This document shows, one piece after another, positions 570 through 63,400 of a DNA stretch of 64,000 nucleotides. Origin of the DNA: Amoebophrya sp. A120. Taxonomy: Eukaryota; Protista; Dinoflagellata. The translations under genes and the position numbers were made by a program. Numbering within the stretch: position 1 is the stretch's first letter; each line of letters opens with the position of its first letter. The notes below the pieces were generated by a model. That model made no database searches. It was not told where the DNA came from and saw nothing but the letters and a program-made list of their open reading frames with translations. The stretch lies in NCBI GenBank assembly GCA_905178155.1, contig CAJINV010000004.1:4009555-4073554 (forward strand). Direction: 5' to 3'.

Positions 570-1504
570 ATGTTTATCGCCAAGGAGCGTCGTTTCTGCA
601 AGCCCCTGCTGGAACAGCTTGGGAGGCAAAGATCAGCATGCGGAGCGCCGGCAGTTCCAGGACTGCAGGCAGAGCAAATGTGGATGCGTTTACCAAGCGC
701 GCCGCGACCACGTGGCAGTAGTCTACGAACAGCACGGGGGATGAATCAACATCAAAGCTATGGGACCACGAGAAGTAGTACCTGCAGCAGACGAGTAGTA
801 GATCATGCGTCTTTACTGACGAGCTCCGCAAGAACATACTCCACGTTCCTTGCAGCTACGCGCCGATCTTCCAGTTTTCCCAGTCTTGATGTTTCCTCGA
901 CCACGAGTAATAGATTGGGATTGGCAATTACAGGTATAATTGCAGCAACTCCAACTACCACGCTACCGCTAGTACCAGAAAACGAACCACATCAACAGCC
1001 ACAAAAACGTCGTAGCTTTGCCTCCGCTTCTCGCAAGGACGTGGGGGACGGCGAGGGGGAGAGCAAGCGGATGTCGGAGACGGAATTTCATTCCCTGGCG
1101 GACGACGCGTTGAATGCGTGTTTGGATTTAATCGAGGACCGGAACATCGACGAACAGATCGAGGTATCCTGTGCAAAAGTATCGTACTCGTAGTAATTGC
1201 TTTCATGCATGACAAATATCCCTTTTTGGCTGAATCAGCATGACAAATTCCATTTTCCCTTATGCAAAAACTTGTGATGCGATTTATACTAGTACGATAC
1301 TTTTGCAATGCATACGAGGACTACGACTTGGCGGACGGGGTGCTCAAGATCGTGGTCACCGCGAAGGACCAAATTGTGGTGAACAAGCACAACGCCACGC
1401 AGCAGATCTGGTATTCCAGTCCTTGCGGCGCGCAGTACTTCGACGCGCCGTATGGGGAGCTGGTCGGGGCGCTGGAAAAGGACTTGGGGGAACTGCTGCC
1501 TTGA
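570..1504 (+). CDS. FXN: Frataxin (CyaY family) with N-terminal extension, 2 exons
   Basis: Spliced C-terminus EFHSLADDALN...IE|DYDLADGVLKI...VVNKHNATQQIWYSSPCGAQYFD matches the frataxin signature. Interrupted by an introner at 1165-1314. Start ATG (570) is uncertain. Confidence 0.88.
1165..1314. mobile_element. Introner family A
   Basis: TIR tat-N4-tgcaaaagtatcgtact; direct repeat cgagg/cgagg; readable as GT-AG. Confidence 0.92.
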
Positions 1505-4517: not shown

Positions 4518-7095
4518 ATGACGACGCTCGGTGGTGGTCCCTCACTCGGCCGGGGGCCGTCGGGCGCGACAAAATTTCTGCTCAAATTTGACTCCTTCCG
4601 GGAAATACCCTCGGACCTGACCGAGCCCACGTTACTCGGCAGCGTGTTCACCCTCTTCGCATACTTTCTTTGCGGTACAAAAATTGAACTTGAACTGAAA
4701 GCTGGATCTTCATCACCATCATTTTCATTTTCGCAGTGCTAGAACGATGAATGTAAACGTACACAAGAACCTGCTGATGTTTTCCAGGACAACACACATA
4801 AAAATCCACCACACAACAGGTACACTTTTCATGTGCGAGCTGTGGGGCTTTTTGATGGCGGAACACTCTACCCGCATTGTCATGGACGGCAACCAGGACA
4901 AGCAGCTCCGCATCAACTTCGACATTTTGATGCACGATCTGGCGTGCAAGCACCTCACCATAGGAATTTGGGATTCCTTCGGCAGCGAGCGCCTGAACAT
5001 CACCAGCAATATTGTGAAGTCCAGGAAAATGCACGACGGTATAGTATTGACATTGACCACCTACATTTGAACATGCGCTACATATTTTTACCCTCTAAGT
5101 CATGTGTTACAGCTACGCGTTCGCTTCATGAAGGGGTAGTACTACGGCCGCACAGAGCTGCAACTGCAAGATCTTTCTCCTATCGCTCTCCACCAAGACT
5201 ACATCTACAGGTACGTTCCATCCCTACACGGATTCGGAGCTCCTAGCGTTGGACAAGCACAATTTCACCGCCGAAGAAATGGAGGAGTACAACAAGGACT
5301 GGGGCAGCAGCGCCGAGAAGCACATATGCACTGCAAAAGTATCGTACTCGTACTAATTGCGTTTATGCATTACAAATTTTTTTGTGAACGCAAATCCGCA
5401 TTACAAAATCAATTTGTAATGCTAAGTCAAGTTGTAATGCAATTTATACTCGTGCGATGCAATGCTTTTGCAGTTCATAGCACACCAGCTTCGATAACGT
5501 GATCGAGAGCCACGACTTCACCTTTATAAATTTTTACGCGGGTTGGTGCCACCACTGCCGCATGTTCGCGCCGGAATGGGACAAGTTCGAGAAGGAGGCC
5601 AACTCCAAGCCCGGCGAGCTGGTGGACAGCAACGGTTCTCCGGTTTCTGTGCGCGTGATCAAGATCAACTGCGTGGACTTCGAGGAGACCTGCAGCCAGG
5701 AGCAGATCATGGGGTTTCCCACCGTGCGGCTCTACCGACGGACGGTCACGAAGCGGCGGTCCTTCTCCGAGTTTCCGCAGGCCCGAAACGCGGCCGCCCT
5801 CTCCGAGTGGATCAAAAAGGAGCTGAAAAAGCAGGAAGTAAGCAACCCCAACCTGCAGTTCCACAACTTTTTTTCCGAGGGCTGCCGCGCGGAGGGCTTC
5901 GTGGAGGTCGCGCGCGTCCCCGGAACGCTGCACCTAGAGGCGTCGCACTCGGACGACACGAGTTTGAATTTCGCCTTCACCAACGTGAGCCACACCGTGA
6001 ACCACCTCAGTTTCACTACCGCGGGCGAGTTGTCCAAGTACCCCACCCGGGTGCCGCGCAGCTTCGAGGAGCACGTGAATGTGTTGGACGGAAGAAATTT
6101 TTTCACCTCCGGCTTCCACCAGGCCCCCCACCACTACATACAAGTGGTCTCCACCTTTTTCGAGACGCAGAAGGCCCGGAGCTACCAACTCACGCACCAG
6201 CAGCGCCTGGCCGCAGTGTCGAAGCACAGCACGCCACAGGCGAAGTTCTCCTACTCCCTCTCCCCAGTCGAGGTGCGGGTCACGCAGAGCGGCTTACGGA
6301 AGTGGGAAAGCATCGTAATTTCGTCATAGATAAAGATCTGATGCACTCTCTCTCGTCTCTCGGTCTCGCAGCATCAGCATTGCATCTTCATATAAGTAAC
6401 TTTGTTGGCATAACGGTGACAATCAAAATAGAAATGCGAGGAGGCTGCTGGAGAAATTTCTATGACCGGACAAAAGTCCTTAATTCCGGATTTTGCTAGC
6501 GGTCTTTATAGAAATCCTAGCGGTCCCAGCTTGCTAGCTGACTAACGACAGCGACGCCGTCCGCCCTGGGAATGCACCCACACGCCAACGATTTCAAAGC
6601 AGTACACTGCAGCGGTGTGGCTCTTTGCATTCAATGCATTGAGCCAACAACCTTGTTGAGAAAATAGCAAAGGCGTCTGTGCGTGATGGCTATAAAAGCT
6701 GCGCAGTCATAAATATCACGCTTTGACACGAGTATGATCGTCATTTTTCTAGCGAACTGGGATCGCTAGAAAATCTATAAAGGCCGGTAGAAAATCCGGA
6801 ATTAAGCAAGTTTTGTCCGTTCATAGAAATTTCTATTGTGGATGGAATGACAATGAGCGGTTGCTGCGGTGCCTGTCGTGAAAAAAAAACCTGTCGTGAA
6901 GATCATGCTTTTCCTTTTTGTAAGTACGTGCATTTTACGATGGACTTTTGCCCGCAATACACCAAAAGATGGTACGAATTCATCACGTCCCTGTTGGCCA
7001 TTGTGGGCGGGGCCTTCACCGTCACCGGCATGCTCCAGGCTTCCACGGCAGCCGCAAAAAGGGCCCTGAAGATAAATCTGAACAAAGTGGTGTAG
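4518..7095 (+). CDS. PDI-C-type protein: ERGIC_N + thioredoxin (WCHHC) + COPIIcoated_ERV domain, 5 exons
   Basis: KFDSFREIPSDLTEPT..G (Erv41/46 N-terminus), FYAGWCHHC, GCRAEGFVEVARVPGTLH, FSYSLSPVEV, KW|YEFITSLLAIVGGAFTV. GT-AG introns 4675-4819, 5039-5210, 6302-6968; introner 5325-5479. Confidence 0.9.
5325..5479. mobile_element. Introner family A
   Basis: tatgcactgcaaaagt...cttttgcagttcata; direct repeat gcaca/gcaca; non-canonical ends. Confidence 0.9.
6452..6834. mobile_element. MITE/foldback element with ~85-bp TIRs inside a GT-AG intron
   Basis: 6452-6537 is an imperfect reverse complement of 6749-6834; both ends carry the palindrome agaaatttct. Confidence 0.8.
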
Positions 7096-15618: not shown

Positions 15619-16865
15619 TTGCCGGCTTTCTTACTGCTGGTGGCGGACAAGAATGTTGCGGACCAAGTCGGTGTCGCCAGCAACGGGCGAACATCTCACC
15701 TGACGGCGACGGGCGGGGTCGACAGCAGGCAACAAGACGAACAGTCCGCATCCCCCCCGTCGGTCTCGGAAATCGAAGACGAAGGCCGCGGAGAAGAGGA
15801 AAATCATGCCCCGAACCCCCGAGAAGCTTCCTCCACTTCTTTTTCCCAAACGGACAGCGTTCCGAACTCGACGCCAGCGGATTCTTCCCACACGAGTTCG
15901 ATTTGGAATGACGAGGTGCAATCTGCGCGGTTCGAGGGGCAGTTCATGATGTATTTGCACACCACAACTTCGATGGAGCAACAGCTATTGCACACTGTTA
16001 CTCCTGATGAGATGCGGAAACTGCAGGTATTCGTATTGATGGCCATCGCCATCATCATGCTTTAAGTAAAAAAAGAAGAACTTTGCAACAAAAATAATCA
16101 TCAACATCAGAAGACAATAGAATAGTTTATTGCACATAAGATGAGTTTTGACTTTGATGACGAAAGGGAAACCAAAGCAATAGTTGTCCTTGTTGTCGTC
16201 TACTGTGACATCCTGCTTCATGTTGACCGATCAAGCGAAAAAGAAAAATAATATATCACGCTAAGGTACTGAAACAAGGGTTCCAGCTATACTCTCCCTG
16301 CTTGCTGCTGAGGTTCCCGGCGTACCGATATGGTTTGAAAGTTTTGAACTTATGCAATGCACAACAAGAAGTATCTGTAATATCGTACTAGCAATGTATT
16401 AAAAAATTGCTTGACAAATAAATCTGCGTCTGGCAGCATGCTGAAGATCATCAAAAATCGAATTTGTAATGCTTATAATTCGGCATCGGCTCCTTGATCA
16501 TGATCTCGAGAACCAGACCATCTATCATGCACGATGGGAATGAATTAGTACGAAAACGATACTTGTTCTTTTGCACAGCATAGAGCTTCGACGCCGACAA
16601 CAATTACATGCTGAACCAAACCGAGTTCACGATATGCAACCAAAAAGTGATGTTACGGCTTTGCTTTCTACACGTTGTATTGCGGGACAAGCACGACGGA
16701 CAATCGATCCCTGTCATGCCGTACATTCCTGCGAGCGTCTTTTCATGCGTGTTGTTCCTCTTCCTTACGATGACGAACAATCGCAGCAGTAGTAGCGGTA
16801 CCTTTTGCTTTTTCATAATGCCTGGAACAACGCTAAAAAATTTAGAGAATTTTATGTGTCGCTGA
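15619..16865 (+). CDS. Probable multi-exon hypothetical membrane protein; exon structure unresolved
   Basis: ORF 15619-16065 ends in a hydrophobic stretch. Removing element 16351-16582 gives an open frame FPAYRYGLKVLN|FDADNNYMLNQTEF. Confidence 0.35.
16351..16582. mobile_element. Degenerate family A-like introner
   Basis: tatgcaatgcac...gatacttgttcttttgcacagcata; direct repeat gaact/gagct. Confidence 0.7.
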
Positions 16866-27311: not shown

Positions 27312-30300
27312 ATGGCTCCATTCAGTATCAACTCGAGGAAGCTCCTCTGGTGGTGGTTTTCTTTCGGCCCCGCGGTTTTTCTCTACAACTTCGATCCGCA
27401 GCTGACCTTTTTCGCCACCGTTTGCGCGGCCAATGTGCAGTGTCACTGCGACCACCACGCTTCTGCCTGCACGTGCGGGTCGGAGGAGCTGCGCAGGACA
27501 CCCAGTGGGTATTTGGTGCCAGTAGAAATTTTGGTAGGTGGAAAAGCTGCGGGTGTAACAAATGGAAATGCTGTGCAGCTGAACCCGTCAGGGGACCACA
27601 GTGCAACTACCGTTCTTGTTCCCGCCCTGGCGACGGCGATTTTTTCATCAAACAACAAGAATGATTACGGCGCGCAGCTGCTAGCGGCACCATCGAGTAC
27701 AACTTCAAGCTCGCAAACAACCACTTCTGCGACTGTAGCTACAACACCTGTGAAGAAAACAAGTCTACCCTCGTCACCACCGCCACAAGAACCATCTTCA
27801 CCGCCTGCGCCACCGCCGCCCGCGGCGGCGCCGACGCCAAGCCCACCAAGCTACGGGCCGCCTCCTTTCGTCGCCAATTTTCTAAAAAAATTCGGAATTC
27901 CCTTCGGCAAGCCAAGTGGTGGTGGTGGTGATCCCGCTGGTGAGGCGAAAGCTGAAGCTGCCGGAAACGCCAAGAACTCGGAAAAATCTTCCGTATCGTC
28001 TGCGAGCAGTGGCTTTGCCGGGATGATTCCGGGCGGGGGCGGCGGACCGCCGGCGTTTATTGCGGACAAACTGAAGGCCTTCGGCATTCCGGTGGGAAAA
28101 CCGGATGGAAAACAGGCTAGCAGCCCCGGGTCGCCTGCTTCAGGGATACCGTCTTTTGAGTCCAGTTTCGCAGGAGGACCCCCCTCTTCGCCGGGCGGTG
28201 GTGCGTCGGGCGGTGGCCCGCCGCCTTTCATCGCGGACAAGCTGAAGCAGTTTGGTATTCCAGTCGGCAAGCCGGACGGCAAACAACTACAACCGGGTGG
28301 AATCGAAGATGATAAAAAGACCGCCGGTGCAGCAGCATCTTCGCCCTTTGCCGCCGCTGGCGGCGGAGCAGGAGGTCCCCCACCGTTCGTGGCAGATAAG
28401 TTGAAGCAGTTCGGTATTCCGGTGGGAAAGCCTGAAGGGAAACCTGCTGGGGATGAAGCTGCAACTACTCCTTGTCCTGCTGGGGCACCTTCTTCAACAT
28501 CAGAAGATGCGCATGCAACTCCTTCTAGCACCAGCAGTGGCCCCCCGCCATTCGTCGCAGACAAACTGAAGCAGTTTGGAGTTCCGTTGGGGAAGGATGA
28601 TAAATCTGAGAACAAGAAACTTGCAACTCCAGCAGGGGCGGGTACGTCAACACTACCGGAACAGCCCAAGGCGAAAGCACAAGCAGCACCACCAGCAGCT
28701 TCGCATGAAGGAAATTCTGCTTCACCCGCGGTTGGTGCTCCAGCGCCGAAGGAAAATCCGACGAAGAAAGCAGCTTCCCATTCTGCTGGTGCACCAGGAC
28801 CACCAGCTACAGCCGCTGCAAGCGCCAGCAGTCCGAAGCCCATCGTGCAGGCCGGCACGGTTGTACCCTTGCAGCGCATCCTTGTTGAGAAAAAAGCACA
28901 GCGAAAGAGTGCTACAGATTTGTTGTTCAATCCCGCCACGACTACGGCAACTACGCCACAGTTCCGCCTGCTCAATCTGGCCACGCTGCTCGCCCAAGAC
29001 TTCCGGCCGATGGAGCTGCTGCAAAATGTCGCGTATCCTGCGCAAAACAAGTATCGTATAGTAGTACTTCAACATCTAGTAGAATAAATCACTATTTCCT
29101 CTTCAGCATGAGAAATGCAATTCAGTTGTGTATATGGTATGAGCAGTGCGATACAACTTTTGCGAATGCATATCGCGGACGCGCAGTACATCGGCACGAT
29201 CGAGGTGGGAACGCCCAGCGAAAAGGTGAATGTCGTATTTGACACGGGGAGCAGCGATTTCTGGCTGCAGCTGGACAAGAAGTCCTCGACGCTGCAGCAA
29301 ATCGCGACGACGCTATGAACTGTAAAAGTATCGTACTAGTACAACAAATCACATGGCAAATTTCCTGAGCAAGACAAATAAAATTTGTAATGCGGATTTA
29401 ACTTGTAGTGCATGAATGCGATTAGTACGAGTACGATACTTTTGCACAGGATAGACGCCGACCGTGATCAACTACGGCAAGGGGAGCGTGATGGGTTACG
29501 AGTCCAAGGATCGCATTCGCATCGCGGGCGTGGTAATCCCGGACCAGGAATTTGTAGTGGTCGACCAAACGCAAGATTTGAACAACGCCCTCTTTCATGG
29601 CGTGATCGGCCTGGCGTTCGAGGGCTTGTCGGTCAACAAACAGCCGGAGCAGACATTCCTGGCACACATGCTTCGCGGTGGGGTGGACGGGTATGTAGTA
29701 GGGACGGGTTGTTGATGCTTTTCTGTACATGATTTTTACGATATTTGTACTGCAAGAGCAAAAGGAGGGAAAGTCCACGACTCTACGCTGAATTTGCAAT
29801 ATGACCCGCCAGTTTAGCTACTTTAAGAGCGTCAGACCGTTGCTCGTCACGTTTTGCGACGAATGCGGCGAAAAAGCTAGCGGTAAGAAATAACCCGACC
29901 AATGAAGAAGATTTTTACATCGATTAAACAGTTTCTGTGTGTACCTGACGGGGGAATACAGCGGTGAGGATTCCAAGGTCGCCTTTGGTACGACGATCCC
30001 CGACTCGTGGCCTTACGACCGGAGCAGCCTGGCCTTCGTATGGCGTTCTCAACTGTTACATTCCCAACTGTTGCATGAATCTGTGATGCAAGAAGGGCAA
30101 AACTGAAAGCAAAGGGGGAAGATTGCGCCTTTTGCATGACAGATTTGATGGCACAGATTCAGAGCCTGTTTGGGCCTTGCAGAATTTGTCATGCGCAGCG
30201 GCTTGAAGATCGCGTCGAATCTGATTGGAGTTTTGCATGACAAATCATGTAGTAACAGCTGAGGATGTAACGTTTGAGAGCGCCATACTTCGCCCCCGTA

Positions 30301-32989: not shown

Positions 32990-34466
32990 ATGGTGTTCTG
33001 GATGGAACAGTGTTTCACCGACACCCAGGATGACAGCAAGCTGGGGCAGGTTGGCTGTTGCCATTGCGACCGCTCGCGGGAACCAGGGTGCTGCTTGCGG
33101 TTTTGGTCCGGTTTCTTCAGCTCTCCTTGCGGAGCGGGAATGTGTCTGACGGGGAACTACGACGGTCCCGGGTCGCGTACGAGAGTGGTGCACAACTCAA
33201 ACTCTCCCTCCTTGTCGCTTTTCATAGCCTCTATCATGGAATAAACAAAAAGAACAGCAACGCTGCACGTTCCCTGGCATGAGAAATCTTAATCTGATCT
33301 ACACGTACATGTAGAGTGTCTTTGTGTCTGGTCTCCCGACTAATAGTTTCATGCTCACTGTGCCGAACGAGAACCGCAATGACAAATGAGGGGGACCGAC
33401 GAGGGGAAGTTGTGCGATCTCATATTGCGGGCCTTCAAGTTGCAATTGTGCCTGTTCTTCTTGGTGCTTCTGCCGGAGCTCCTCTATCGCAGTTTGCACC
33501 TCGTTATACTCCTCTGCAACCCGCTCCCGCCCCAAGCGAAGGTATGAGACGAGGACGGGGAGAACTAAGAACTTGAAAATATAATTCTGCTGTAGTTCTG
33601 TTGATGCTGCAAAAACTTGGAACTTCAACTTTTGGTATTGTCTACTCACTTAAATAGAATGAAGACACTTCGGTATTTTATTCAGGTCTCCTACATCGCG
33701 TTCGATGAGCAGGTCAAGTACGAGTTTTCGCACTCCTACTCCGACGACGTTTTGCCCCTTATCATTGTGCACGTGGTACTAAGTGCAAATATGTGTGGGT
33801 CTGGAAGATTGTTAGACTTCTGATGCATAATATCTGACATGTAGATGTACGTGACAGACCGGAGACTCTGCGATGGTGCGTGAGCACGAAAGGGTCCTCT
33901 TTTGTGTTATGCAAAAACGCAGCGGCGCGGGCGCGGCCAGCGCGTCATGCTCATGATGCGGAGTACGCAACAAGCCATTCTAGCAGCCCAAAAATTATTT
34001 ATTATTTGTCATGCTTGGCCTTGGCTGCGTATGCGTAAGCGTATTGCAGTGCGCATATCACTGACATTGTCATTCACTTTTAGCATTACAAGGCCCCAAG
34101 TGTAACGTTACAGCGCGAATAGAAAGACAAAGAAGCGAAAAGCGACAAGCTTAACCTTTTACGTGTGGAGCGTGTTCACCTCTTGTATAATTACAACTTT
34201 CTAGTCCCAGACACATTTGCGATAGATATGTGGTCGTGGACATTTTGACGTTTGTTGCCTGGATCACCTCTGTGGTCCACCTCCTCATGTGGGTATCCAC
34301 AAAAAAAGACCCATCCCCATCGAATTTGTGATGCAAAACATGCATCAAGTCCAGTGCTTTTCATGCAGAAAATGGATGGGGATGGGTTTTTTTCTGCGGA
34401 TATTGGGAACCGAAGACCTACATGAGCAGAAACTCCGCCGTTGTGGGGCCGCCCACGACAGTGTAA
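32990..34466 (+). CDS. Cys-rich membrane protein, paralog 1; middle exons unresolved, possibly degenerate
   Basis: N-terminus MVFWMEQCFTDTQDDSKLGQVGCC and spliced C-terminus ...MW|EPKTYMSRNSAVVGPPTTV* match the 35583 gene. Confidence 0.6.
33777..34228. mobile_element. Long, diverged family B introner
   Basis: gcaaatatgtgtgggtctggaa...cccagacacatttgc; direct repeat cgtgg/tgtgg. Confidence 0.78.
34294..34402. mobile_element. Introner family E (109 bp)
   Basis: Same length and TIR type as 22439-22547; direct repeat gtggg/ttggg. Confidence 0.88.
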
Positions 34467-35582
34467 GGAGAAGCAGAGGACGGTCGTCGAGGAAGTCGTC
34501 GCGTTCAAGTCGCAAAACTAAAACAAGGATTTTAGTATATTGATTTTTTGGCACAGTCAGTCGTGTACACTCTATTGTATGATTTGTTTACGACGAAGAT
34601 TACGACTAGTGCCAGAATGACACTTCGAAGAACAAAACCCTAGAGAACTACAAACGTACAATGAATTTCAGTTTGGATTTGGTCATATCGACTTTGTGTC
34701 GCGATTGAAGTAGAATGATTGGCATTGGCCACAACATGACAACTTTACAAATTACCTCGTCATGTCATTACTCTTGCAGCTGCAGCACGGTAGCGCGCAC
34801 GATCGCTTGAGTTACACCTTTTGTCGATTACAGTATACAAATACATCATTTTTATTAATAGTTTGCTTTGCACCGCGTTTATTCGTTGTATAGTAAAGAT
34901 CTCGATCTGTTGGAATTACAAGAAGCACAAAATTAGATATTAGTATCACTAGTAGTTTTGTGGTACTGGCAACAATTTCACGAAAAATTGCAGTATGTCC
35001 CATATTAGCAGCTTACCACACGAGATAAAGAAAAAGCACACGACCGCAAAATCTCGCATGGAGGAAACGATCCGCTGAATTGAGTCCATTGCTGTCTCGA
35101 GAAATAAGGAAAAACGCAGCTTGATGTTGCTTTGTTGCCTATTTAGTGTGTAGTTCTGGAGCACCATGCGTCGTCTGGTCTAGCGAATCGTTCGGTGTGT
35201 TCTGGAGATGTGGAAGATGGCGCTCCTTTTATTTCTGGTGTAGATCAACTATCGTCCGCGAGCTGGTGGAGCGAGCTCGTCGAGTAGAGGGAAATAGAAA
35301 GAGAGAAGCTTGCTGTACCGGTTGTAGTGGAAGATTGCTTCGCTTACTTCGCACAACTCTTGTCCTCGTAGATCGAGTTGACAGCTAATATATGGACGGT
35401 TCAATACCACAATTTGTGGACTCATCCATCTAAGTATCTTGTTCATCTCTACAACAAGAACCTACCCCTTCGTAATCTGTGTCTAAGTACAGCTTTTGCT
35501 TTATAATTTCTAAATTCAACAACGTCAACGACCAGTTACACGACGTGGGGTAAATAGCAATCAAAATTAGCGAAAAAAATAT

Positions 35583-37075
35583 ATGGTGTTCTTCCTGGAG
35601 AAGTGTTTCAACGACACGCAGGATGACAGCAAATTGGGGCAGGTTGGTTGCTGCAACTGTGACCGGTCGCAGCCGCCGGGCGGGTGTCTGCGGTTCTGGT
35701 CCTGTTGCTGCAACGGTTGTTGCGGAACGGGTGCCTGTCTCACCGGGAACTACGATGGTGCCGGATCGCGGGCCTTCAAACTGCAACTGTCCCTGTTCCT
35801 CTCGGTTTTCCTTCTGAAAATGCTCTTTTTACCCACGCTGGACGTCATCGTCCTCGCGAAAACGAGCCGCGGAAACGGACCTCCACCTACGTCCACCGCC
35901 ACCGCCGCGCCAACGGAAGGAGCAACTAGTGGTACAGCCGCGTCAGGTACAGCAACCCAGTCGGCCTCGGCGTCCTCTAGCTCTACTAGTATGGCGGAGC
36001 TCCGGCACGGGAAGAGGATTGCGGGGGAACAAGTAGATCTTCTTCACGATTTTCAGACCGCGCAAGAAGATCCTCGCCAGGTCATCGAAATCTCCGCCGT
36101 GGGCGACAAAGGCGAAGCGGGACAAGGCTCATCTACCGCCGCTGGTACTAGAAGTAGAACTACTACTAGTACCTCCTCCGCAGCAATGGTGCAGCTCAAC
36201 CAGCAGGAGAAGTCCTCGGCAAACGTAAACATGAAGATGAAGCAGGGCGTTGAACAAATGGCGGATACACCAACAAAGGCGGCGGGAATGAAAACTGCGA
36301 AGAAAGTCGTGCAGGAGGTGGACACGACGGGCCAGGGCCAGGGGAAAATCAAGGACGCCGCGGCCGCCCAGGAGGACGGAGAGAAAGGAGCCGCGCTGCA
36401 GGGAGACGAACTAAAAGCCGAGCTGCAGGAAGTCGAAGCGGATGCAGCGGAAGCGTTCGACGAGACGAACTTCACGGGCTTGACCATTCTTGTGGTCGCG
36501 CGCACGGTCGTGTATCAAATGCAAATATGTCTGGGTCTGGAAGAAGGTAAATTTGTGACGCGAATAAATGTGATTGTAAATCTGAGTTGCATGACTGCCA
36601 CGAGTTCTTACCAGTTTTGGGTGCAAGGTGAGCGGGAGTTCTTTCTCGTGCAGAGGAGGCATGATGAAGACGTCATAGAACAATCTGTCATGCTAGGCCC
36701 TGCATTCCAGACCTCGTGGGGCTTTGAAAGCCTGCATGACGATCCTTGCACTCATCTCCCACAGGAGGACCCAGACATATTTGCAGTTGATACCGTGGAT
36801 GGGATCGCGATTCTCGTCGAGATCATGTCGCTGATCCACCTGTTCTATGAACTGCAAAAGTATCGTACTTGTATAAAAAATGCAAGTCTTGCATTACAAA
36901 GCTTGTTCCCAAGGCAAATCTGCATATACAAATTTTAATTCTCATGCTGAGGAAATAATTTGTAATGCAGTTATACGAATACGCTTGCTCTTTTGCAGTT
37001 CATATGTTCACGTGGGACGCGAAGACCTACCAGAGCAAAAACTCCGCCGTCGTGGGGCCGCCCACTACCGTGTAA
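35583..37075 (+). CDS. Cys-rich membrane protein, paralog 2, 3 exons
   Basis: MVFFLEKCFNDTQDDSKLGQVGCC...RTVV|DGIAILVEIMSLIHLF|TWDAKTYQSKNSAVVGPPTTV* after removing two introners. Confidence 0.75.
36513..36792. mobile_element. Introner family B
   Basis: Family B TIRs; direct repeat tcgtg/ccgtg. Confidence 0.88.
36846..37004. mobile_element. Introner family A
   Basis: tatgaactgcaaaag...cttttgcagttcata; direct repeat tgttc/tgttc. Confidence 0.9.
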
Positions 37076-42940: not shown

Positions 42941-45900
42941 ATGGCGTCGATGCGGAAGAACAACAAGTTTTTCGGGAGCAGTAGCTCCGACAGCGACAGC
43001 AGCAGCGATGACAGCAGCTCCGACTCGGAGCAGGAGCAGCAGCAGCAGAAAATGACGCGCATGGTCGCGAAGCGCCGGGTTAATATCTCTGACTCCGAGG
43101 ACAGTGACTCGGATTCTGGCGCGAAGCGAGTCGTCAAGTCCGGGGCGGACAAACGGTATTTGAAATGCGACGCTCATGTCAATATTAAACGCTTGCCCTT
43201 GCGTTTACGTATATCAACTTTAGTATCGTGTAGCTGCTTTGTCATCTCGTGTCGCAGGCCACCCTTGGTTAATATGTAATGTCGTGTTCTTGCAGTACAA
43301 ACGTGAAGGATTTCATGTAAAAAAATCCATGCAATCAGAATCACTATCACATCCAAAACAGCGTCGAGAAGATGAAGCAAGTGGCTTCGAAGATGCAGAA
43401 CGCGAAGAAGGTGCTGGACTTTCAGCTGGTGCTCGAGCAATACGAGGAGCTGTGGAAGCAGGAGGCCGCGTGCCACCGCGCGTCCGCGCCGGTCCCGGAC
43501 GTGTTCTATAAGACAATCGACACTTTAGAGCAGTGGGTGAGCGAGCAACAGGCGGGCAAAAAGGAGATGAAGAAGGCCAAGGCCATGCAGCTGACCAAAC
43601 TGACCAGCAAGTGCCGCAAGCAAAACGGAGAAATTAGGGACTTGATCGAGGAAAAGAAGGCTTTGTTTCGCGAGGACCAGAATGGCAGCTCGGCGGAGGA
43701 CGGAAGTAGTAACAGCGAAAATGAGAACGAGGACGAGTCCGGAAGTGAAAGTGACGACGAGTCCAGCGACTCGGAAGGGGATAGCTCCGGTATAATTGGA
43801 AGATAAAGATTCGCTTTTTTAGGAACGGATTTCTTTATGTTTTGGGGTGCTGCTGCTGCATTTTGATTTTTGAAGTGTACTTGCCACTTTCTCTTTCTGT
43901 CACAATCATCTGAAATTGGATTGACAGGCCAACAAGGTCGTGTTATTCCAGGACCAGATGAAGAGGGGACCACGTGCACGTCGTGTTTGCTGCGTAAAAA
44001 ATGAATGTACATACAGTAAGATTAAAAACTAAAACTCCCTCTCTTCATCGAAATTTAAATTTAAATTCCACAGACGACGACACGGGCAAATCCGCGAAGA
44101 AGCAGCAGGCTCGCGAAGGCGAGCACACCTCGGACACGGACGCGGGCAGTTCCGATTCGGATTCGGACTCTTCTAGCGATAGTTCGAGCTCCGATAGCGA
44201 CTCCGACTACGACAGCAGCGACAGCAGTGGGGAGGAGGATGACATGGACATTGGTACAGCAACTCCTGATTTTTATCTTTTGGTCAACTACAGCATGAGA
44301 AAGAGCACTTAGCTTTGCCAGTCCTTTGTACTTCTACTAGTAGGTACTTCTGAAGTACTTCTACTAGCCTCTTGACGCGGGCGTCCAGGACGCCCGCTGG
44401 GCTAGTAGATTTAAAAATAATTCTAGAGACGGGAATGCGTTTAGAAGGTTTGGCTTGCAGTCGAGTAGAATGCGGCTAGAAGGTTGAAAAGCATAACGCT
44501 GCCTGCCCCGAGGAAGATCGTTGCCGCGCCTGCGCTTGCCCTTGCGGCCTCGCCACTTTGACGCCTTTTGCGGTCCGGCGTCCAGGACGCCGGCCCGCCG
44601 TCAGCCCTTTAGCCGCGTTGCCGCGCCTCCCTGCGCTTGCCCTAGCGGCATCGACGCTTTAACGCCTTTTGCGGTCCGGCGTCCAGGCCGGAAAATTGAT
44701 GACCAAAAGTTTCACTGTTGCCCGACCGGAGGTGGTGGCCAAGGAGCCCCTCGCCGTCACTTTTCTTGCCCAGCCCGGCCGGCCGGGCAAGGAGCTCTTG
44801 GCCATTACTTTTGCCCGCCCGGAAACTGGTGGCAAAAAGTGATCCCGTCCCGGAGGTGCTCCCGGCCTCCACTTTTGCTCGGCGGGCCCACCGGAAAGTG
44901 GTGGCCAAGCTCTTGGCCACCACTTTTGCGCGGCCGGAAAGTGATGACCAAAAGTTTCAACTTTGCACAGCACGGCCGGAGGTGATGGCCAAGGAGCCCT
45001 TCGCCGTCACTTTTGCCCCGCCCGGCTGGGCAAGGGGCTTCTGCCCATCACTTTTGCCCGCCCGGAAAGTGGTGGCCAAAGGTGATCGCTGCGAAGTTCT
45101 TGGCCACAACTTTTGCTCGGCCTGCAACAGCCAAAGGTGATCGCTGCTGGCCAAAGGTGAACAGTTCATTGGCCAAAGGTGATCGCTGCTGGCCACAACA
45201 GCAGTGGGGAGGAGGATGACATGGACATTGGTACAGCAACTTCTGATTTTCCTTTGGTTAACTACAGCAAGCATGACAAAGTAGATTTGCCAGTCCGTTT
45301 GTAGTCGTACTACGAGTACGGAATTACTATGTGATTAGGTAATAGAAATAGTCACTTCGTCACTCAATCTCATTCGCGACTTTTGAAACACTGTGCAAAC
45401 CTTTCCGACACAACAACTACATCTACAGATGCCATCCGTGAGAAGCGGCGCCAGCGTTGGTTAATGACGGACAAGGACTACGCGAAGCTGGAGAAGGAGA
45501 AGGAAAAGAAGAAGCGCGACGAAGAGGAGAAGCAGCAGCGCATGGCCAAGAAGCAGGAGAAGCTCGAGAAGTCGAAGACGAAGCACACGAATGACCAGAT
45601 CGAGGACAACTTGGAATCTTCTCTGGACAGCAAACTGCTAGAGGAGCAGAAATTCAAACTCTTCAAGGAGTCTTTCGACGCGAAGTCGTGCCAGCAGGTC
45701 GTCGAAACGACGCTCGAGCATTTGAAGCCCAATAGCAAGTCCCGTCGTATGGACGCGCGGGAGAAGGCGCGGAAGACGGCCTACCTGATCGAGTGCTTAC
45801 GCATTGCAAAGATGTCTGGGTCTGGAAAGTTGTGATGCTAATGTCCGAATGATACGCAACCTGTATTAGGGGGCCGCGCATGACAAGTTTCATCTGAGCG

Positions 45901-48900
45901 GCTATGTCTAGCGTGAACCGCATGACAAGTGGGCTTTTGCATGACAGACAAGTGGCACTGTAGCGCACCAAGCATGACAGATTGTTCTGTCTTGTCAGCC
46001 AAGCATGACAGACTTGCATTCTTCCAGACCCAGACATTTTTGCAGTTGATAGTGCTGCCAGCAGTTCCATTTGTTTAACTTGTGCTTGCCGCTGCACCTG
46101 CAGTCCGGCCGGCAGCTGCTGGAGAAGATGGACAGCAAGGGGGGTTTGATCTGCAACTCCGCGAACTTCAAGTTGTTTCTGCAGCACGCGAGCAAGAATT
46201 TGTTCCCTTTGTTGGAAAAGCTGGTCAGCGAAAAAGAGAACATGGACAAGGCCATGCAGGAATTCTCCACCGGAAAGGGCATCGATCGCGAATCGGTATT
46301 TTTGTGTGTTTTGTTTTGATGAAAAGCGAGGAATTATAAAGCCCAAATTTGTATAAATTCATCCTTCTTTACCAATAACAGATTGATATAGATGTCGAAA
46401 TCGAAAATAATCCAAAACTCCAGATCCTGGCGCCATTCACGATGCAGATGCAGTTGCAGAACTTTATGTCCCTCCTGGACCTCGCTGACCAGAAGTGCTA
46501 CGAGGCCATGCAGCACCCGGACGACAGCGCGGACCGGATCGAGAACATGATCCGCTTGGTGCAGCTCTTCTTCGAGACGCTCAGCTTTCTGGAAACCTTC
46601 AACATCAACAAGGTCGAGAAGGCGAGATTTGCGGCGAGAATCCAGTCCAGGCTTTTGTCCAACCTTTACTACAACAAACACGAGGATATGAGAATGGTAT
46701 AAAAAATCATGCTGGAATCAACATTTTCAACATGAACATTGCTGCTGGCCGAGGCCACGTGGTGCCATGTAGTCACAATGAATTATGGGAGGCGAGAACC
46801 TCCCATAGAGATAGAAATTCTTCTCTAGATGAAGAAAAAGATATCCCAACGTCACGCTATAGATTTTCCCCATCCATTTGTTCCGACAAAAAATAAAAAA
46901 CCAACACCAAGAAGCATTTCTACAATGAAGTACACGAAGTTCGAATTCCTCGATGTAATTAATTGTAATTACCTACCACCACAGGTCCTCTCCACGATGA
47001 TTCACCTGCATCCGAAGGCCTACCCGGAAGTCGAGGCGGAGACCAAGTACCCGAACTTCGATGAAGCAGATTTCAAGAAGGCCAACCTTCCGTTCACGGA
47101 TGCGGAAATCAGCGAATTCATTGCGGATTTGGAGGAAAAAATCTCCTCCGTCGAGGACGTGGACGGGACGCGCCGGGATCTCACCGCGACGCTGTGCCGG
47201 GTCTACAACTTGTTCGTCAACGACGAGTATGTGAAGGCAAGAAAGATCATGCACTACCAAGACCTGCAGAAGGAGGTATAAGTTTTTGATTGAAGATGAA
47301 ATCGCATGACAAATTTTCATCTCAGCATGATGAGAAATGGAATTGGTATATGCGGATTCACCTTAAGAGAAAGATTTGCAATGCGTGGCTTTGACTGCAT
47401 CCAACGCCAACTACACCACCGCACCAGGTGTCCAACCGTGAGGAGCACCAGTTGTCGAGCCGCGAGTACGAACACTCTCTCTACGTGCTCTGGAACCGCT
47501 ATGGATGTGTCAGGATTGAAATCGACAAAATTGAAATGATTTGTCATGCATAAAATGCAAGGCATGAAGTGCCTTTCTTGCCAGGATGGCAAGGGAGACC
47601 GACTGTCAGCCTGTTTAGGGTTTGAAATAGAGCTGCTAAAGTAGCATGACAAAAGCAGGCGTCTGTACCCAAACAGCATGACAAATTGGATTCCGGTGCT
47701 CGGAAAATTTGTCATGCACCGCTTGAAAGTTGGGCTTCCAACTGGTATCGATTTTATGCATTGCAAGTTATTTCAACTTTGACGATTTCAATCCTGACGC
47801 TTTCATAACCGCGTGAACGCGCAGATGGGGCTCGCTGCCTTCCGCCAGGGCCACTTTTACGAGGCCCACATCGCGTTGCTCGATTTGAACTCGTTTCAGA
47901 AGGCCAAGGAACTCCTCTCCCAGGGCGTGACCTTCCAACGCGGCTCGGATCGGGATAAGGAGAAGGAGGAACTTATCCTGATGAAAAACGTCCCCGCCCC
48001 ACAATTGTCATGCAGAATTGCAAGGACAGGAACATTTGTAATGCGCATCCCCAAGAGAGGCATAATCAATCGTGTTTTGGCATTTGTAATGCTACAAACA
48101 GGACAAGGGGACGGCTTTGTAATGCGGCTGTGCTTGCTAACCAGCACTACTGAATACAGCGAGAAGCCTGTCATGCGTGATTCCCAAAACATTTGGATTT
48201 GTGTTGCCTTTTCCCTTCTTGACTCTGGTGTGGGGACGTTTTTTCACAGGATAGAACTCCAGGAGAGGTCCATCATCCCCTACCACATGCAAATCCCCTT
48301 GGACTTGCTGGAGTGCGTCGCGTTGATCTGCGGACTACTCCTCGAAGTGCCCAACATGGCGTTTTTGGCGTACGACAAAAACGGCAGGAAACGCTACCAG
48401 ACGATTTACAGCAAGCCGTTGAGAACGGCTTTGGAAAAAGCGGAACGGTCCACGGTTCTCACCCCCGCTGAGTCGATGCGGGAAAGGATTGTCGAGTCCG
48501 CTCGTTTATCAAATGCAAAAATGTCTGGGTCTGGAAGAATGCAACATTTGTCATGCATATTTTGCATGCCCCACGAGGTCTGGGACAGGTTCTGCGAAGT
48601 ATCTATCTTCATGTCTATCCTGCATGACAAACTGCCGCTAAACTTGTTCAAACGTGGACGCCTTTTGGTAATCATGCAACGCAAATTTCTGTACTATCCA
48701 GACTTAGCATGACAAGTTGCAACCTTCCAGACCCAGACACTTTTGCAATCCATACCGTTCTCTGCAGCAGGGCAACTGGAAGAAGGCGTTTGAAATCTTG
48801 GACAACGATATCCAGGTGTGCAAAACGCACTCGGAACTGATGGCGAAGGAGAAGATTTTCGAGGAAAAACTCCTGCCCGAGGTCAAGCAGCAGGCGGTGC

Positions 48901-55000: not shown

Positions 55001-58000
55001 ATTCGTGGGAGTAGAGATGTAGACCAGAGATGGCAACAGCAGCAGCAGCACACTGGGGACGTCGAGCGGTGGAACAAGAGAGACGGTGCTCAAGAGAAGT
55101 GGGATCAACATGGGGAGGAACAGTGGAACGAGTATGAGCACGAGGAATGGGGCGAAGAGGAGCAAAAACGGTGGGAACAAAGATGGCGCAAGCCGCACTC
55201 ACCCGCCGCTATGAGCCAGGGAAACACGACCTACGAAACCACAGGAGAAAGTATTCATTTTGAATAAAGAGGCTATTAAATAAGTCGGGAATTGTTCATT
55301 TTACAGATGCATCTGCATGTTGAGCGTAACAACTTGCACAAATTATCGAAAAAATTGTCATGCAATCGTCGTCCATCCCAGACCCAGAGAGATGCTTTTG
55401 CAGTGCGTAATATACCACCCAAAAACTACAGGCCACCCGTACACTGCGAATTCCACTGAACAGCATTCACCTGTCGACCTAGGCCGCGAGCGCGACCCCA
55501 TCACCCTTAACAGCACCGGGTATTTTTTACAGCATCACGTCGAGAGTTTTTTTCTACTGCGCTGCTATAGAAGCAGAGCACCATGTGCCAACGTGCTGAA
55601 GATTTGATCAACTTTTATTTGCGTCATTGAAAAATGCAATGCAATGTAGTCCTTTGTGATTGTGTCGCAAGTGAACTGAGTGAAACTATCAAACAAATTC
55701 AAATCCAACTTCAAATACAGACCACGCACCCGCGCAGATCCCCCCTTTGGCGCACCCCCGCCACCCCCGTCGGGGCCCCCACCCCGCGCTGCGGAAGCTC
55801 TGGTAATGAAGGTGCCCACTGCCGCTTTGGTTACCAACGTGCGCGAAACGCTTCGCTCGATGCAAGGTACACATAGGTTGTTTCTTCTACCTTGTGTCTC
55901 GTACATAATTATGAGAAAATTTGACGATCATTTCTTATGAAGACGTTTTTCTTTTTGCATGTTCGATGAAGTGCCTCTCCACAGCAGTTCCCCAGGAGCA
56001 TGGCTATGGTACTGGTAGTGAAAAGATCTGTAATCGAAAACGAAATCGACAAAGAATCGTCGATGCATCAAACAAATGAAAAATCAGGCAAATGCACCCT
56101 GAAGCACTTGGCGACCAAGCAAAAGGATTTTTCCGCGAAATCTGGGAAAAATCTGGATGACTTCCTGATGGAGCATCCGGACGTTTTCAAGATCGACGGC
56201 AGCACGGTGACACTCCTGGAAGACACGCGATATTTGACAAAGGACACCTCCAACACTGAAGAGGTAGCTTATGCTTCGTAAATCCATTATTTCATTGACG
56301 AACACGGAAGTTTTTTCACGTGCTTTGCTTGTTACACATAGCCAGCATATGGATAATTATGCTCCGCTTGAACCTGATCGATCTCGATGGAGGAAGCAAA
56401 GGATAAAAGCAAAAGAAACCGAAAAGCAAAAGATTCCCGTAAAAATAATATCCACCCACTACTACAACCACAGATCTACGGTGCTTTCAGCGCCCCTAAA
56501 GAGTCCCCGTCGCACAGCAAGGATTCCTACAGCAAATTCAACGCTTCGCAAACGGCTGCGCGGGAAAATATTAACCTGAACACGACGGAACAAGCGGGTT
56601 CTCTTGAGAAGGACCGGTCAGAGAAGAAGAAAAAGAAGAAGGACAAGTACTGGGAGGAGTGGGACGGCGGGCAAGAGCAGGAGTGGACGAAGGAAGAGTG
56701 GGAGGCGTGGGAGAACTGGGGCGACGACTATGCGGAGAAGAAAAAGAAAAAGGAGAACAAGCACAGTCGCAAGGACCCGCACGTGGCGAGTCAGCGCCAC
56801 CCCCTCGGGAAAGAGGAGGATTTAGAGACCTTGCTGCAAAATGAGGTCGACAACGCGTACGGAGACAACCACTTTGATGGGCGCTATAAGGACGATGAAG
56901 TAGTAGACTACGATGGTGGGGATAATTACGACGCAGCAGAAGGAACTTCTAAGTCGGCGAACAAGGGTTACAACACTGGTTCCTACAGTAATAGAACAGG
57001 AGTAAAGGAACAACACCAGGGTAGTAGTTCTTACGATCACCACAAAGGCAGTTCGTCAGCACAGTACAACAACAAGTCGTCCAACAAGGCCGAGAAACAT
57101 CAAGACGGCACTTATGCCTCCTCTTCCCGCGACGACAATACTAGCGCTTCTACTTCTAAGCCGGGGTCTTCTTGGTACCATGATAACAGCGCGAAGGAGT
57201 CCCGCGAGTCCCGGCGGGGTCGCGGCGGCCGGGATAAAAAGAAGGAGAAGGATAACCAGCACTACGATAGCTATGACAAAGACAACTGGTATCAGGAGGA
57301 CAAGGAGACGAGCAAAACAAAGAGCAACATGGTCTCTTTGACAGGAACGGCTGCAAAGAGTTCTTCTACCTCTGCGAACGGCACAGGGGACACGACTCTC
57401 GTCGGTGGTTTGAAGAAAAAGAAAAAGGCGGGTTTGTCCATGAATCTGAACCAGACGGATGACAAGCCGGTTGCGAAGAAGGAAGAGGAAAAGCCGGAGG
57501 CGAAAAAGTGGACCGGGTGGGGCAAGCCGGATCCGGACACACCGGTGAAGCACGACCATGAGTTTAACAGTACCAGTGCGACGTCGCAACAGCCCCCCAA
57601 AAGATCCGTCCCGCTCGCCAACGGAGGTGCGGCTGCAGGAACTGCGAATGGGTCAGCTTCTAGCGGCGCTAACGGAATAAATGCGAAGGGGAACGGCAGT
57701 GCTGCGCCGGTTTCTGCAACTGCGAATGGCAACGGAACCACTTCTAAATCTTCGTCGAAGAAGGGCAGCGGACGCAAGGGTGGCAAGGACAAGGACGGCA
57801 AGGATGGTGGTGGAAAGAAAGGAGCGTCGAACAGTAGTTCTTACGCAGCGGAGCCAAAGTCCAGCAAGGATGACGACGGTGGCTCCAACGACGCCGAATC
57901 TGCGAACAGCGGTAAAGGAGCGGGCAAGAAAGGTAGTTCCTCTTCGAAAAATAAGGGCAGCGGCAAGCGACGCGGTGGAAAGAAGGGCGACAAAAGTGCC

Positions 58001-60432: not shown

Positions 60433-63400
60433 ATGTCTGCGGCGGGGCAATCTGCGGCCATGGCGTCCGCGGACGCGGCGGCTGTGATGCCCACCGGGCT
60501 TTCCCGCGACATCGACGGGAACATTCGGACTCTCTCGTGGGAGAAGCGTCTGGTGCGGGGGTTCGAATCCATGTTCTTGTCCAGCAACAAGGAGGTCGCG
60601 CCGGCGTACTTGGCAAAGACGCTGACCCGGCAAGAAGTCATCAAGGGCGGCGGGGAGACGAAACCCATGCCATTGGGACCGGATGGCAAGCCCATTGTCG
60701 ATCCGGTTTATGAGGAAAAGCTGAAGCGGAAAAAGCGGCGAGTGAGGTATTTGCACCAGGCCTGGTCTTTTGCGTACTTATTTTTCTTCACAACCTTCCA
60801 TGCAGCACGTCTTGTCGCTGTATAGGACGAGGTGCAAGATCAAAAACAAGTACGCCAAAAGATAGATCATAAAAATGAAAATCTCATGCATGCAAGACCG
60901 GTTCGTGGTCAAGTGCTACAATCAAAATCAATATCAAAACAGAAACCTCTATTACGTGGCGATGTTTTGGTTCCTCCTCCTGAACGCCACACTGATCTAC
61001 ACGGGCTGGCAGTACTTTTCCGCGGTTCTCCCCTACACCCGCGATGTGTACATAAAGTCTACCGCCGGGCCGCGGTACGCATTGCAAAAGTACCGTACTT
61101 CCAGTACAAATCGAATGACAAATAATCTTGTCAGAGGCAAAACTGAAACTTGTCATGCAGATTGAGGTAGGAAACCCAAACCAGATTTGTGTTTGTTATG
61201 CACGGTTTGTTGTAAGTACTTGTACTTCGAGTGCGACTACACTTTTGCAATCCATACACGGGTTGCGCAGAGATTCCGGGACTTTATCGAAACCACAACG
61301 TTGGAGCCGATCAAGCGGATCAATAACGTCATGCAGAGGGGGTTTTTCCGGTTTTACCCGTCCATTTACAACCATGTGAGCCCGATTAATTTCCACTATG
61401 CATTGCAAAACAAAGTATCGTCGTCGTATGAATGCATTACAAATTTCCTCAGCATGAGAAATAAAATCTGTAATGCGGATTTACCTTTAGAACAAAATTT
61501 GTAATGCATGACTGCAATTACTACGAGTACGATACTTCTGCACAGGATATCCACCTCGTGGAGGCCATGTTCGGATCGACCTTGCTCGCCCGGCGGGCCA
61601 TCCTAAAGCTGGAGATGGGGTTCGAGGGCACGCGGCAGGACAGCGCGTTCGGCGCCATGCGGTTCTTCCGCGTCGGGCCGAAGGAGCAATTGGTGCTGCA
61701 GACCGACATCCAGAAATTTTGCACGGAGGGGGTGGGCATCTTTGGCTGCACGCGCAACATGACGCTGACCAACGACAAGTGGTTTCGCGATTTGAAAAAC
61801 GTCGGTCTCGGGACCATTCTGACGCAAACGCGTTTGCAACCGACGCATTTGGATCCCTTCGTTCCGAGCCCGCTGCTGATTCCCATGCCGAGTTTGTGTT
61901 CCTACCCGCACTCCGCCACCGCGCAGAGTATGATGGTCAACGCGATGGCGAATATGGCTTCAACATCAAGTAGTAGTGCTGGCTCTGGCTCAAGCAGTCT
62001 CGCGATCATCACCTACGAACAGCTCTTCCAGCAATATTCCAACTTCCCGTACGCCTACCGCGGCCCCGAGTTCCAGCTCGAGCCCGGAGTCTACCACAAC
62101 CTCGGTGTCGGCTGCTGCCAGCCGGATGCGAACGAAGTGTTGGCCCTGCAGGGACCGGCCGTGAGCAACGCAAACTGCCGGCACCAGTGCGATTTGCGCG
62201 GGGTGGATTGTGTGGGATACGACTACGACCTGAGTAAGCAGAGGTGCTGGCTGCAGACGGGAAGTACGGAAGTGCAGTCGGTTATGGGAGTGTCAGGACT
62301 GATGAAATCGTCAAAGTTGAAATAGTTTGTCATGCATAAAATGCAACGCAGAAAGTGCCTCTATTGCAGAGAACGCAAGGGAGGCAGATAGTAGTGCTGG
62401 TAAGGGTCGAGCATTGGGCTGCTGATTAGCATGACAAAGGGGAGCCCCTTTGCCCTAAACAGCATGACAAACTGGCTTCCGGTACGGACGAAATTTGTCA
62501 TGCACCGACTAGAAACTTTGAGGCAAATTGGTATCGATTTTATGCATTACAACTTATTTCAACTTTGTCGATTTCATGATTCCTGACACTTCCATATCGG
62601 TGTCGCTGAACCCACCGACGGACACCTGTAATGCGTGCTACGCGAAGAACCTGACCCTGACGAACCACTTTGACGCGAATGCCACGGCGGTGAACAGCAC
62701 GCTGCTAGACCAGGAGCGGCAACTGGTGATCGAACAGAAACTGCTCGAAATGGCGCGACAGGAACCGAAACTGCACGAGCACCTCGGGCCGATCGAGGCG
62801 GGGGACCCGCGGAGTTATGCGGATTTGCAGCACGAACTGCAGTACCTACAGCTGTACGGAAATTGCAGTCAACGGACCTCGAGCCCCTTTCTCCAATGGG
62901 AACAGGCCCAGAAGACCGCGAGCGCCATTCTGGAGGCGCATAGAACCTTGTTTCAGAAGTACAGCAAGGAAAACTGGTATATTAGCACTGGAACAACATC
63001 TTCAGGCAGTAGTGGTAGCGGTGGTACAACAGGAGCATCTACTTCATCTTCTAATAGACGGGTATTGCAGACAGATATAGATGAGCCTCCTCGTCCCCTG
63101 GAGGACCAGCAGCTGCCCCATCATCAACCGCGGTGGTCGCAGATAGAAGCAGAAACAGGAACAAGTAGAAATTATCGAGGTGGAATAAAGAAAGCCGATG
63201 TGATGTCGTCCGCAAAAAGACGAGTAGCAACTACTTCCAGTAGCAGAAGATCAGGTGGCGCTGGTCGTACAACAACTAAAGTAGAGCAGCTCTTGCAAGA
63301 GGGCATCAGAACAAATTCAAATGTAGAGACCACGAACACGAAGCACACGATGCGAGAAAAAAGAAAAATGCAGATGAGACAACACCGAGATACTAGCCAC

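Follow-up and report, generated by a model that had tools for sequence, protein, structure and literature searches.

Introner elements and the eIF3c gene

The window, i.e. the whole 64,000-nt stretch of Amoebophrya sp. A120 DNA analysed here, carries short elements that start with TAT, end with ATA, possess inverted arms of 20-55 nt (the TIRs) and are flanked by a 5-nt target duplication (TSD). The detector called 25 elements in the window and 2 in a locally shuffled copy of it; one call, 15952-16138, is probably false, for it reads as coding and has a duplex energy of -5.1. The window together with 68 further loci holds 253 unique intact elements, 102 of which belong to the family of interest, family A. 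Its arms read TAT, seven variable nt and then at least AAA, which is the inverted-repeat pattern of A120 introners; its 5-nt TSDs agree with their direct repeats (3-5 nt at the exon/intron border), and it is repeated (the 102 copies), non-canonical removal being seen in other families. In the DNA-like run, the summed contig depth over 61343-62009 and 48003-48669 is thousands-fold the single-copy level, which is not a copy number, yet the element families must therefore be very abundant genome-wide.

Other repeats of the window are a 97-nt inverted repeat pair at 6452-6834, lacking a target duplication and thus unlike the introner families, five coding repeats spaced by 159-189 nt (27850-28595), and a 188-nt two-copy repeat between adjacent paralogous genes (32990-35770).

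The host gene under study is eIF3c, as indicated by the Pfam families PF05470 (44.8 bits, cut-off 24.2) and PCI (27.9 bits, cut-off 22). In RNA-like contigs of this gene four elements are skipped at exactly element length plus 5 nt, in addition to four GT-AG introns (Table 1). Two further skips of element length plus 5 nt were found, and all six cases concern families other than A. A near-duplicate of an eIF3c exon end and intron start is found at 44240-44430 and 45200-45440, a GC-rich degenerate repeat array lying between the two (~44500-45200).

Table 1. Features of the window and of locus L011 (positions refer to the window unless the locus is named)
Feature	Position	Strand	Details
GT-AG intron, relic of a family A introner	47276..47427	+	152 nt; eIF3c; phase 0 (LQKE/VSNR)
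eIF3c exon 5' of this intron	46985..47275	+	RNA-like contigs, Pfam
eIF3c exon 3' of this intron	47428..47494	+	RNA-like contigs; 3' border not unique, lying in the repeat of the element that follows
Putative first copy of the target site (left flank, GGAGG)	47272..47276	+	its final G begins the GT donor
5' TIR arm position	47277..47298	+	about 7 nt shorter than consensus; begins TAT, rest unrecognisable; 11/22
Family A interior	47299..47395	+	consensus positions about 31-122; few short insertions
3' TIR arm position	47396..47423	+	G-poor, A/C-rich tract resembling local ordinary acceptors; 10/22 match
Putative second copy of the target site (right flank, CCAGG)	47424..47428	+	supplies AG/G
Intact TIR element in eIF3c	45798..46051	.	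removed as element+5 (259 nt); without GT-AG register
Intact TIR element in eIF3c	47500..47807	.	removed as element+5 (313 nt); without GT-AG register
Intact TIR element in eIF3c	47974..48253	.	removed as element+5 (285 nt); without GT-AG register
Intact TIR element in eIF3c	48507..48754	.	removed as element+5 (253 nt); without GT-AG register
Intact family A copy, reference of the original prediction	61397..61549	+	TSD TCCAC
GT-AG-compatible intact copy of family A (xxAGG target)	1165..1314	+	CGAGG/CGAGG; on the coding strand; both TIRs complete
Fainter relic in a GT-AG intron	55251..55431	+	12.8 bits; starts G/TAT
Relic forming a whole predicted GT-AG intron	L011 979-1118		140 nt; 76.5 bits
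Relic forming a whole predicted GT-AG intron, another family	L011 2129-2263		135 nt; 19 bits; flanks ACAGG/TCAGG

A canonical intron with a family A interior

One of the GT-AG introns of eIF3c, 152 nt long, had been predicted from the letters to be a decayed family A element, and its coordinates proved exact. All four RNA-like runs show a 152-nt skip with GT..AG ends, their contigs joining 47273 to 47426; the cut is ambiguous over four letters, one register of which gives GT..AG. These runs are contigs from one sample of one study, their "RNA" label being a program's guess, and a raw-read RNA run (X9) was uninformative, as none of its 66 partial reads lies over the intron. Its GT..AG ends being used in RNA, the intron is canonical in its splice sites; its removal keeps the reading frame, and an ortholog (P0003, 52% identical) has no indel over the exon-exon junction. 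Excision at the DNA level was also considered: the DNA-like run carries the unspliced form (contig 46029-47527, 0 differences), though rare joined DNA might still occur.

The interior of the intron is identical to the family A consensus at 69/80 scored positions. A blastn search aligns it with 61434-61513 (E 2e-11, 76% over 87 nt), inside the very copy to which the original prediction had aligned it, and with 36884-36968 (E 6e-11); nhmmer scores it at 45.9 bits with a model of six window copies and at 45.3 bits (E about 1e-15) with a 48-copy model built from outside loci only. The alignment to the consensus is significant as well, its local score being 45, whereas 2000 doublet shuffles reach at most 16 and nine ordinary introns 9-13. 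Motifs of the GCATGACAAA type are common to all families, and one might thus suppose that the likeness is due to chance or to such a short shared motif, the intron being unrelated to family A. The motif alone is insufficient, however, because the spacer columns between these motifs match the consensus at 32/40 positions; besides, the interior-only score is 44 for the intron and at most 24 in 116 elements of other families, and no shuffle reaches the score of the intron. These score controls effectively refute an unrelated origin, to which hardly any credence is left, and the descent of the intron from family A is almost certain.

At its ends no TIR pairing is found, in keeping with the absence of TIRs claimed at the outset: the end-to-end duplex energy is -5.4 kcal/mol (-16 to -48 in 51 intact exonic copies, -3 to -11 in nine ordinary introns), and the fold z is -1.8 versus comparison values of -5.0 and -6.2. 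A search for TIR remnants was likewise negative, the two ends being no closer to the TIR than ordinary intron ends are. Judged by its TIRs, the intron is therefore a relic and no current member of the Amoebophrya introners. The 54 nt that precede its terminal AG are AG-free, and this AG-free, G-poor tract conforms to the local acceptor context.

The length of 152 nt falls within the 150-155 nt expected of family A plus a repeat (consensus 145-150 plus 5), as had been proposed, and relative to the consensus the intron is about 7 nt short on the 5' side and 5 nt short on the 3' side. Descent is evident for the interior, while for the ends it is inferred from this register. The flanks GGAGG and CCAGG have the letters originally given but do not suffice to prove the target site read into them: they agree in 3/5 letters, all generic AG/G, and AG/G stands on both sides of 2/9 ordinary window introns too. 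Since the ends are TIR-unlike and GTAT begins 7/9 ordinary introns, neither TAT nor AG/G proves a target duplication. CCAGG might alternatively consist of the TIR's own CAGG, fused to the flank by a short deletion.

Distribution of TIR loss among family A copies

Copies were selected by their interior only, in the window and 68 loci (about 180 kb of one assembly, no locus overlapping the window), only hits of at least 30 bits away from locus edges being counted; as the loci were seeded with a single exact 25-mer of the interior, family A copies close to the consensus are favoured. The 128 hits comprise 127 family A copies and one false hit from another family. Both TIRs are kept in 121/127 (116 with both arms plain, 5 more on inspection); three copies are one-arm truncations in apparently non-coding DNA, as judged from translations (L006, L046, L051), and three lie in GT-AG introns (the 152-nt intron, L011 and L026). 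Exonic, TIR-less, non-GT-AG copies number zero among the 127 interior-selected ones of the window and the 68 loci, which bears out the expectation that non-canonical copies retain their TIRs. All 16 true hits whose interior divergence equals or exceeds that of the 152-nt intron keep their TIRs, and old window copies at incompatible sites have paired ends (16351, 16633, 29034, 33178, 33777, 61076). If TIRs were lost regardless of splice class, finding both of the two additional cases under GT-AG would be unlikely (about 0.002, given that some 4.5% of coding 5-mers are compatible), a figure that ignores insertion into older introns.

Several candidates for TIR-less copies were rejected. L022 1229, L038 and L056 belong to a sister subfamily with its own TIRs, which combines a family A-like interior with another TIR sequence (L015 1031-1181, L038 987-1141, L047 1836-1986, L022 1190-1343, L056 1504-1665); L014 1169 and window 47644 belong to another family. 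Those of L013 (1273-1585), L022 (1428-1798) and L042 (639-1037) are intact family A copies with a related insert of 160-250 nt within intact ends. The insert reads like a protein fragment, with a basic RGRP-like motif end and an acidic run, and presumably resembles transposase C-termini; it could be captured host sequence or the remnant of an autonomous element. Two matches in a viral collection had no element context.

A comparison of arms with interiors speaks against the passive TIR decay that had originally been envisaged. In 97 of the 102 intact family A copies (those of 135-165 nt) the median identity is 95% in the arms and 90% in the interior, whereas in the 152-nt intron the arms match at 21/44 and the interior at 69/80 positions (48% versus 86%, p 1.4e-5), and in the 140-nt relic of L011 at 24/44 and 66/80 (55% versus 82.5%, p 1.4e-3); in the L026 relic the arms do not significantly exceed the interior in divergence (p 0.49). 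Had the arms simply been released from constraint, they should be recognisable to much the same degree as the interior, and passive decay is therefore a poor fit. Nor is the L011 relic an old copy, for its interior similarity ranks 51st of 128. Arm loss looks like remodelling instead; selection for standard signals may have reshaped the ends of the two introns, or these ends may be host-intron sequence.

Further relics in GT-AG introns

Apart from the intron singled out by the original prediction, only two relics make up a whole intron, both of them in L011. Excision of these two introns (140 and 135 nt) restores a cullin-like frame at the sequence level. The gene, which I take from its translation to be cullin-like, has four GT-AG introns of the form G/TAT..TCAG/G, namely the two clear relics, one faint (10.6 bits) and one within the null, and it also carries six intact elements.

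Relics are likewise found inside longer GT-AG introns, i.e. one of 586 nt in L039 and one of 290 nt in L026 (the latter gene being presumably Cdc37-like, from its translation); insertion into older introns therefore occurs. By eye, the element start is in the G/TAT register, within about 8 nt, in 5/6 relics (the 152-nt intron, both of L011, L026 and 55251), L039 being out of register. The relic at 55251-55431 retains a remnant of the 3' TIR whose last base, 55409, precedes the AG by 22 nt, and the intron is 18 nt beyond the length predicted for de novo origin, possibly through sliding of the acceptor; its donor side is consistent with an RNA-like piece whose end is 55250. Altogether, 3/11 GT-AG introns of the window score above the maximum of 340 shuffles (5.7), namely the 152-nt intron (47.6), 55251 (12.8) and 45231 (8.1).

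GT-AG-compatible insertions and decoy acceptors

About 4.5% of coding 5-mers are GT-AG-compatible as targets, and so are 7/139 intact elements, 139 being those with a confident strand out of 250. All seven are exonic and keep whole TIRs, with a TIR match that does not differ from that of the 132 incompatible ones (p 0.22). In 6/7 of them another AG lies within 26 nt of the would-be acceptor; the distance to the previous AG is 3-33 nt in these compatible intact elements (n=7), 28-50 nt in ordinary introns (n=9) and 45-67 nt in the relics (n=3). An automatic hand-over to the spliceosome at xxAGG targets, as first proposed, is thus contradicted, and GT-AG compatibility alone is insufficient for conversion. 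By splice class, the TIR-less copies within genes of the window and the 68 loci all lie in GT-AG introns; the seven compatible copies have not lost their TIRs.

The compatible copy at 1165-1314 likely represents a pre-conversion stage, to go by its sequence. It interrupts a small gene at window 1035-1502, presumably resembling frataxin/CyaY (from the translation); Pfam gives no family for 1321-1500.

A probable conversion from end-guided to standard splicing

The account favoured here, to which I assign a probability of about 0.62, is that insertion of a family A copy made the 152-nt intron, which was afterwards converted from end-guided to standard splicing. A family A copy landing on GGAGG in the exon of eIF3c would have created an intron; the fresh copy would have left by a non-canonical route that requires both TIRs and, since the TIRs mark both ends and bring them together, tolerates any target. 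At some 5% of exonic targets one cut register would also read GT..AG. Such a compatible fresh copy would nevertheless be a poor standard intron because of its G-rich 3' TIR and decoy AGs. Substitutions and short deletions may then have removed the decoys and built a local A/C-rich acceptor tract, whereby splicing would become sequence-defined. After the hand-over the arms would be dispensable and their loss probably favoured, while the interior would drift.

Alternatively, an older GT-AG intron may have received the family A copy, with deletions taking both arms and most of the host sequence; both ends would be those of the host intron and no conversion would have taken place, although TIRs could still serve non-canonical splicing. 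This would explain why the ends of the 152-nt intron resemble ordinary intron ends and have no TIR trace, it would yield the divergence of arms versus interior without selection, and relics within longer introns (L039, L026, 55251) are in line with it. It demands, however, two deletions that spare 24 and 28 nt (31 and 33 being expected of a de novo origin) and a total that lands at 152 nt, in the predicted range, starting from a host intron plus element of about 280-450 nt (ordinary introns measure 128-307 nt); moreover, much the same register is found again in the 140-nt relic of L011 and, more loosely, in the second relic of that locus. Insertion into an older intron is accordingly unlikely. 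The near-exact length and register of the 152-nt intron and the L011 relics favour in-place remodelling, and creation of the intron in place by element insertion is probable.

The probable role of the TIRs

The distribution of TIRs makes it fairly likely, if somewhat less so than creation in place, that they are needed for non-canonical removal. Predicted end pairing is strong in intact copies (duplex energy, folding), and compensated double changes are in excess (35/45, with 14 doubles expected), a result that fits subfamily descent as well as selection. The role in splicing that had been predicted for the TIRs thus finds support in their distribution and none in the RNA-level test of pairing. 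An excess of G-U over A-C in the stems on the sense strand is absent (122:120 in one test; 85:72 in a second one with an interior control of 770:757, hence no bias), these tests using 132 and 125 of the 139 strand-confident elements and having limited power because copies are mostly young.

It could be argued that de novo origin holds and that TIRs are kept for reasons at the DNA level, i.e. recent transposition or homogenisation of arms, splicing reading something else such as the repeated interior motif or the 5-nt direct repeat. The lack of wobble asymmetry would suit such a view, as would the compensated doubles if due to subfamily descent; arm positions 4-8 are often unpaired, single terminal changes are present in some copies, and higher arm conservation would be expected from transposition alone. 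Yet copies with badly decayed interiors or 160-250 nt inserts have kept both ends in exons, arms are lost, in the window and the 68 loci, only outside exons or under GT-AG, and the direct repeats tolerate mismatches evenly at all five positions (8-11 of 139), so that a purely DNA-level retention appears even less plausible than insertion into an older intron. I therefore hold to the TIRs being required end markers, consisting of the terminal TAT/ATA plus a stem, whether read by a sequence-specific protein or as a loose RNA helix.

More speculatively, there might be two modes of intron recognition, by transposon ends and by GT-AG, with one-way traffic between them, such that the ~5% of compatible insertions would actively be freed of their TIRs and decoy AGs and a sizeable share of the lineage-specific canonical introns would be converted introners (compare the 3/11 window introns above the shuffle maximum). 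No RNA wobble signal being seen, the end-reading mode might here be a protein recognising the TIR sequence in either orientation; this wider proposal is tentative, and I would not count it as the likelier outcome.

Comparison with known systems

The window elements resemble the introners described in Amoebophrya (Farhat et al. 2021, PMC7789003), whose IRs in A120 consist of TAT, seven variable bases and AAA, with direct repeats of 3-5 nt and variable, non-canonical splice dinucleotides. In that paper a hairpin is proposed to join the exon ends, the removal mechanism of the non-canonical introns is stated as open, and the layout of direct and inverted repeats is reported in 15% of A120 canonical introns. 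Those published canonical introns retain their IRs, whereas the 152-nt intron is an element interior without IRs, and the text of the paper does not set IR loss against splice class. Prior publication thus extends to the element class, to the hairpin idea and to canonical introns that bear IRs; the evidence for conversion is new, and a literature search of open-access papers and of the 2021 text came upon no TIR-less converted copies for this lineage. U1 snRNA is reported there as undetected in Amoebophrya, which makes the term "normal spliceosome" uncertain here; the two modes may be those of one flexible spliceosome.

Introners with TIRs and TSDs in other lineages (Gozashti et al. 2022, PMC9860276; 2025, PMC12130899) also take a splice site, or both of them, from the target duplication. 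According to these sources co-opted sites are a family rule, while here they concern about 5% of insertions, the rest being removed without them. Fungal introner-like elements, reported to have neither TSDs nor TIRs (PMC9860276), are alike in being repeated, structured introns that decay into ordinary spliceosomal introns (Collemare et al. 2013, PMC3609843); as described, however, they are spliceosomal from birth and undergo no change of splicing mode.

Converted copies amount to a natural knock-out, with the same interior, the ends lost and another splice class, and they make a role of IRs in splicing countable from one genome and one transcriptome. The closest parallel is provided by the nonconventional and intermediate introns of euglenids (Milanowski et al. 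2016, PMC4770533), which share end pairing, non-canonical ends and direct repeats, and among which one GC-AG case was taken to mean that conversion to the conventional type is possible. The euglenid case concerns a single intron with its structure preserved; here the interior is kept and the arms are erased, in several copies, such that the path by which a non-standard intron of transposon type becomes an ordinary one, suggested in the euglenid report from one intron only, can be followed.
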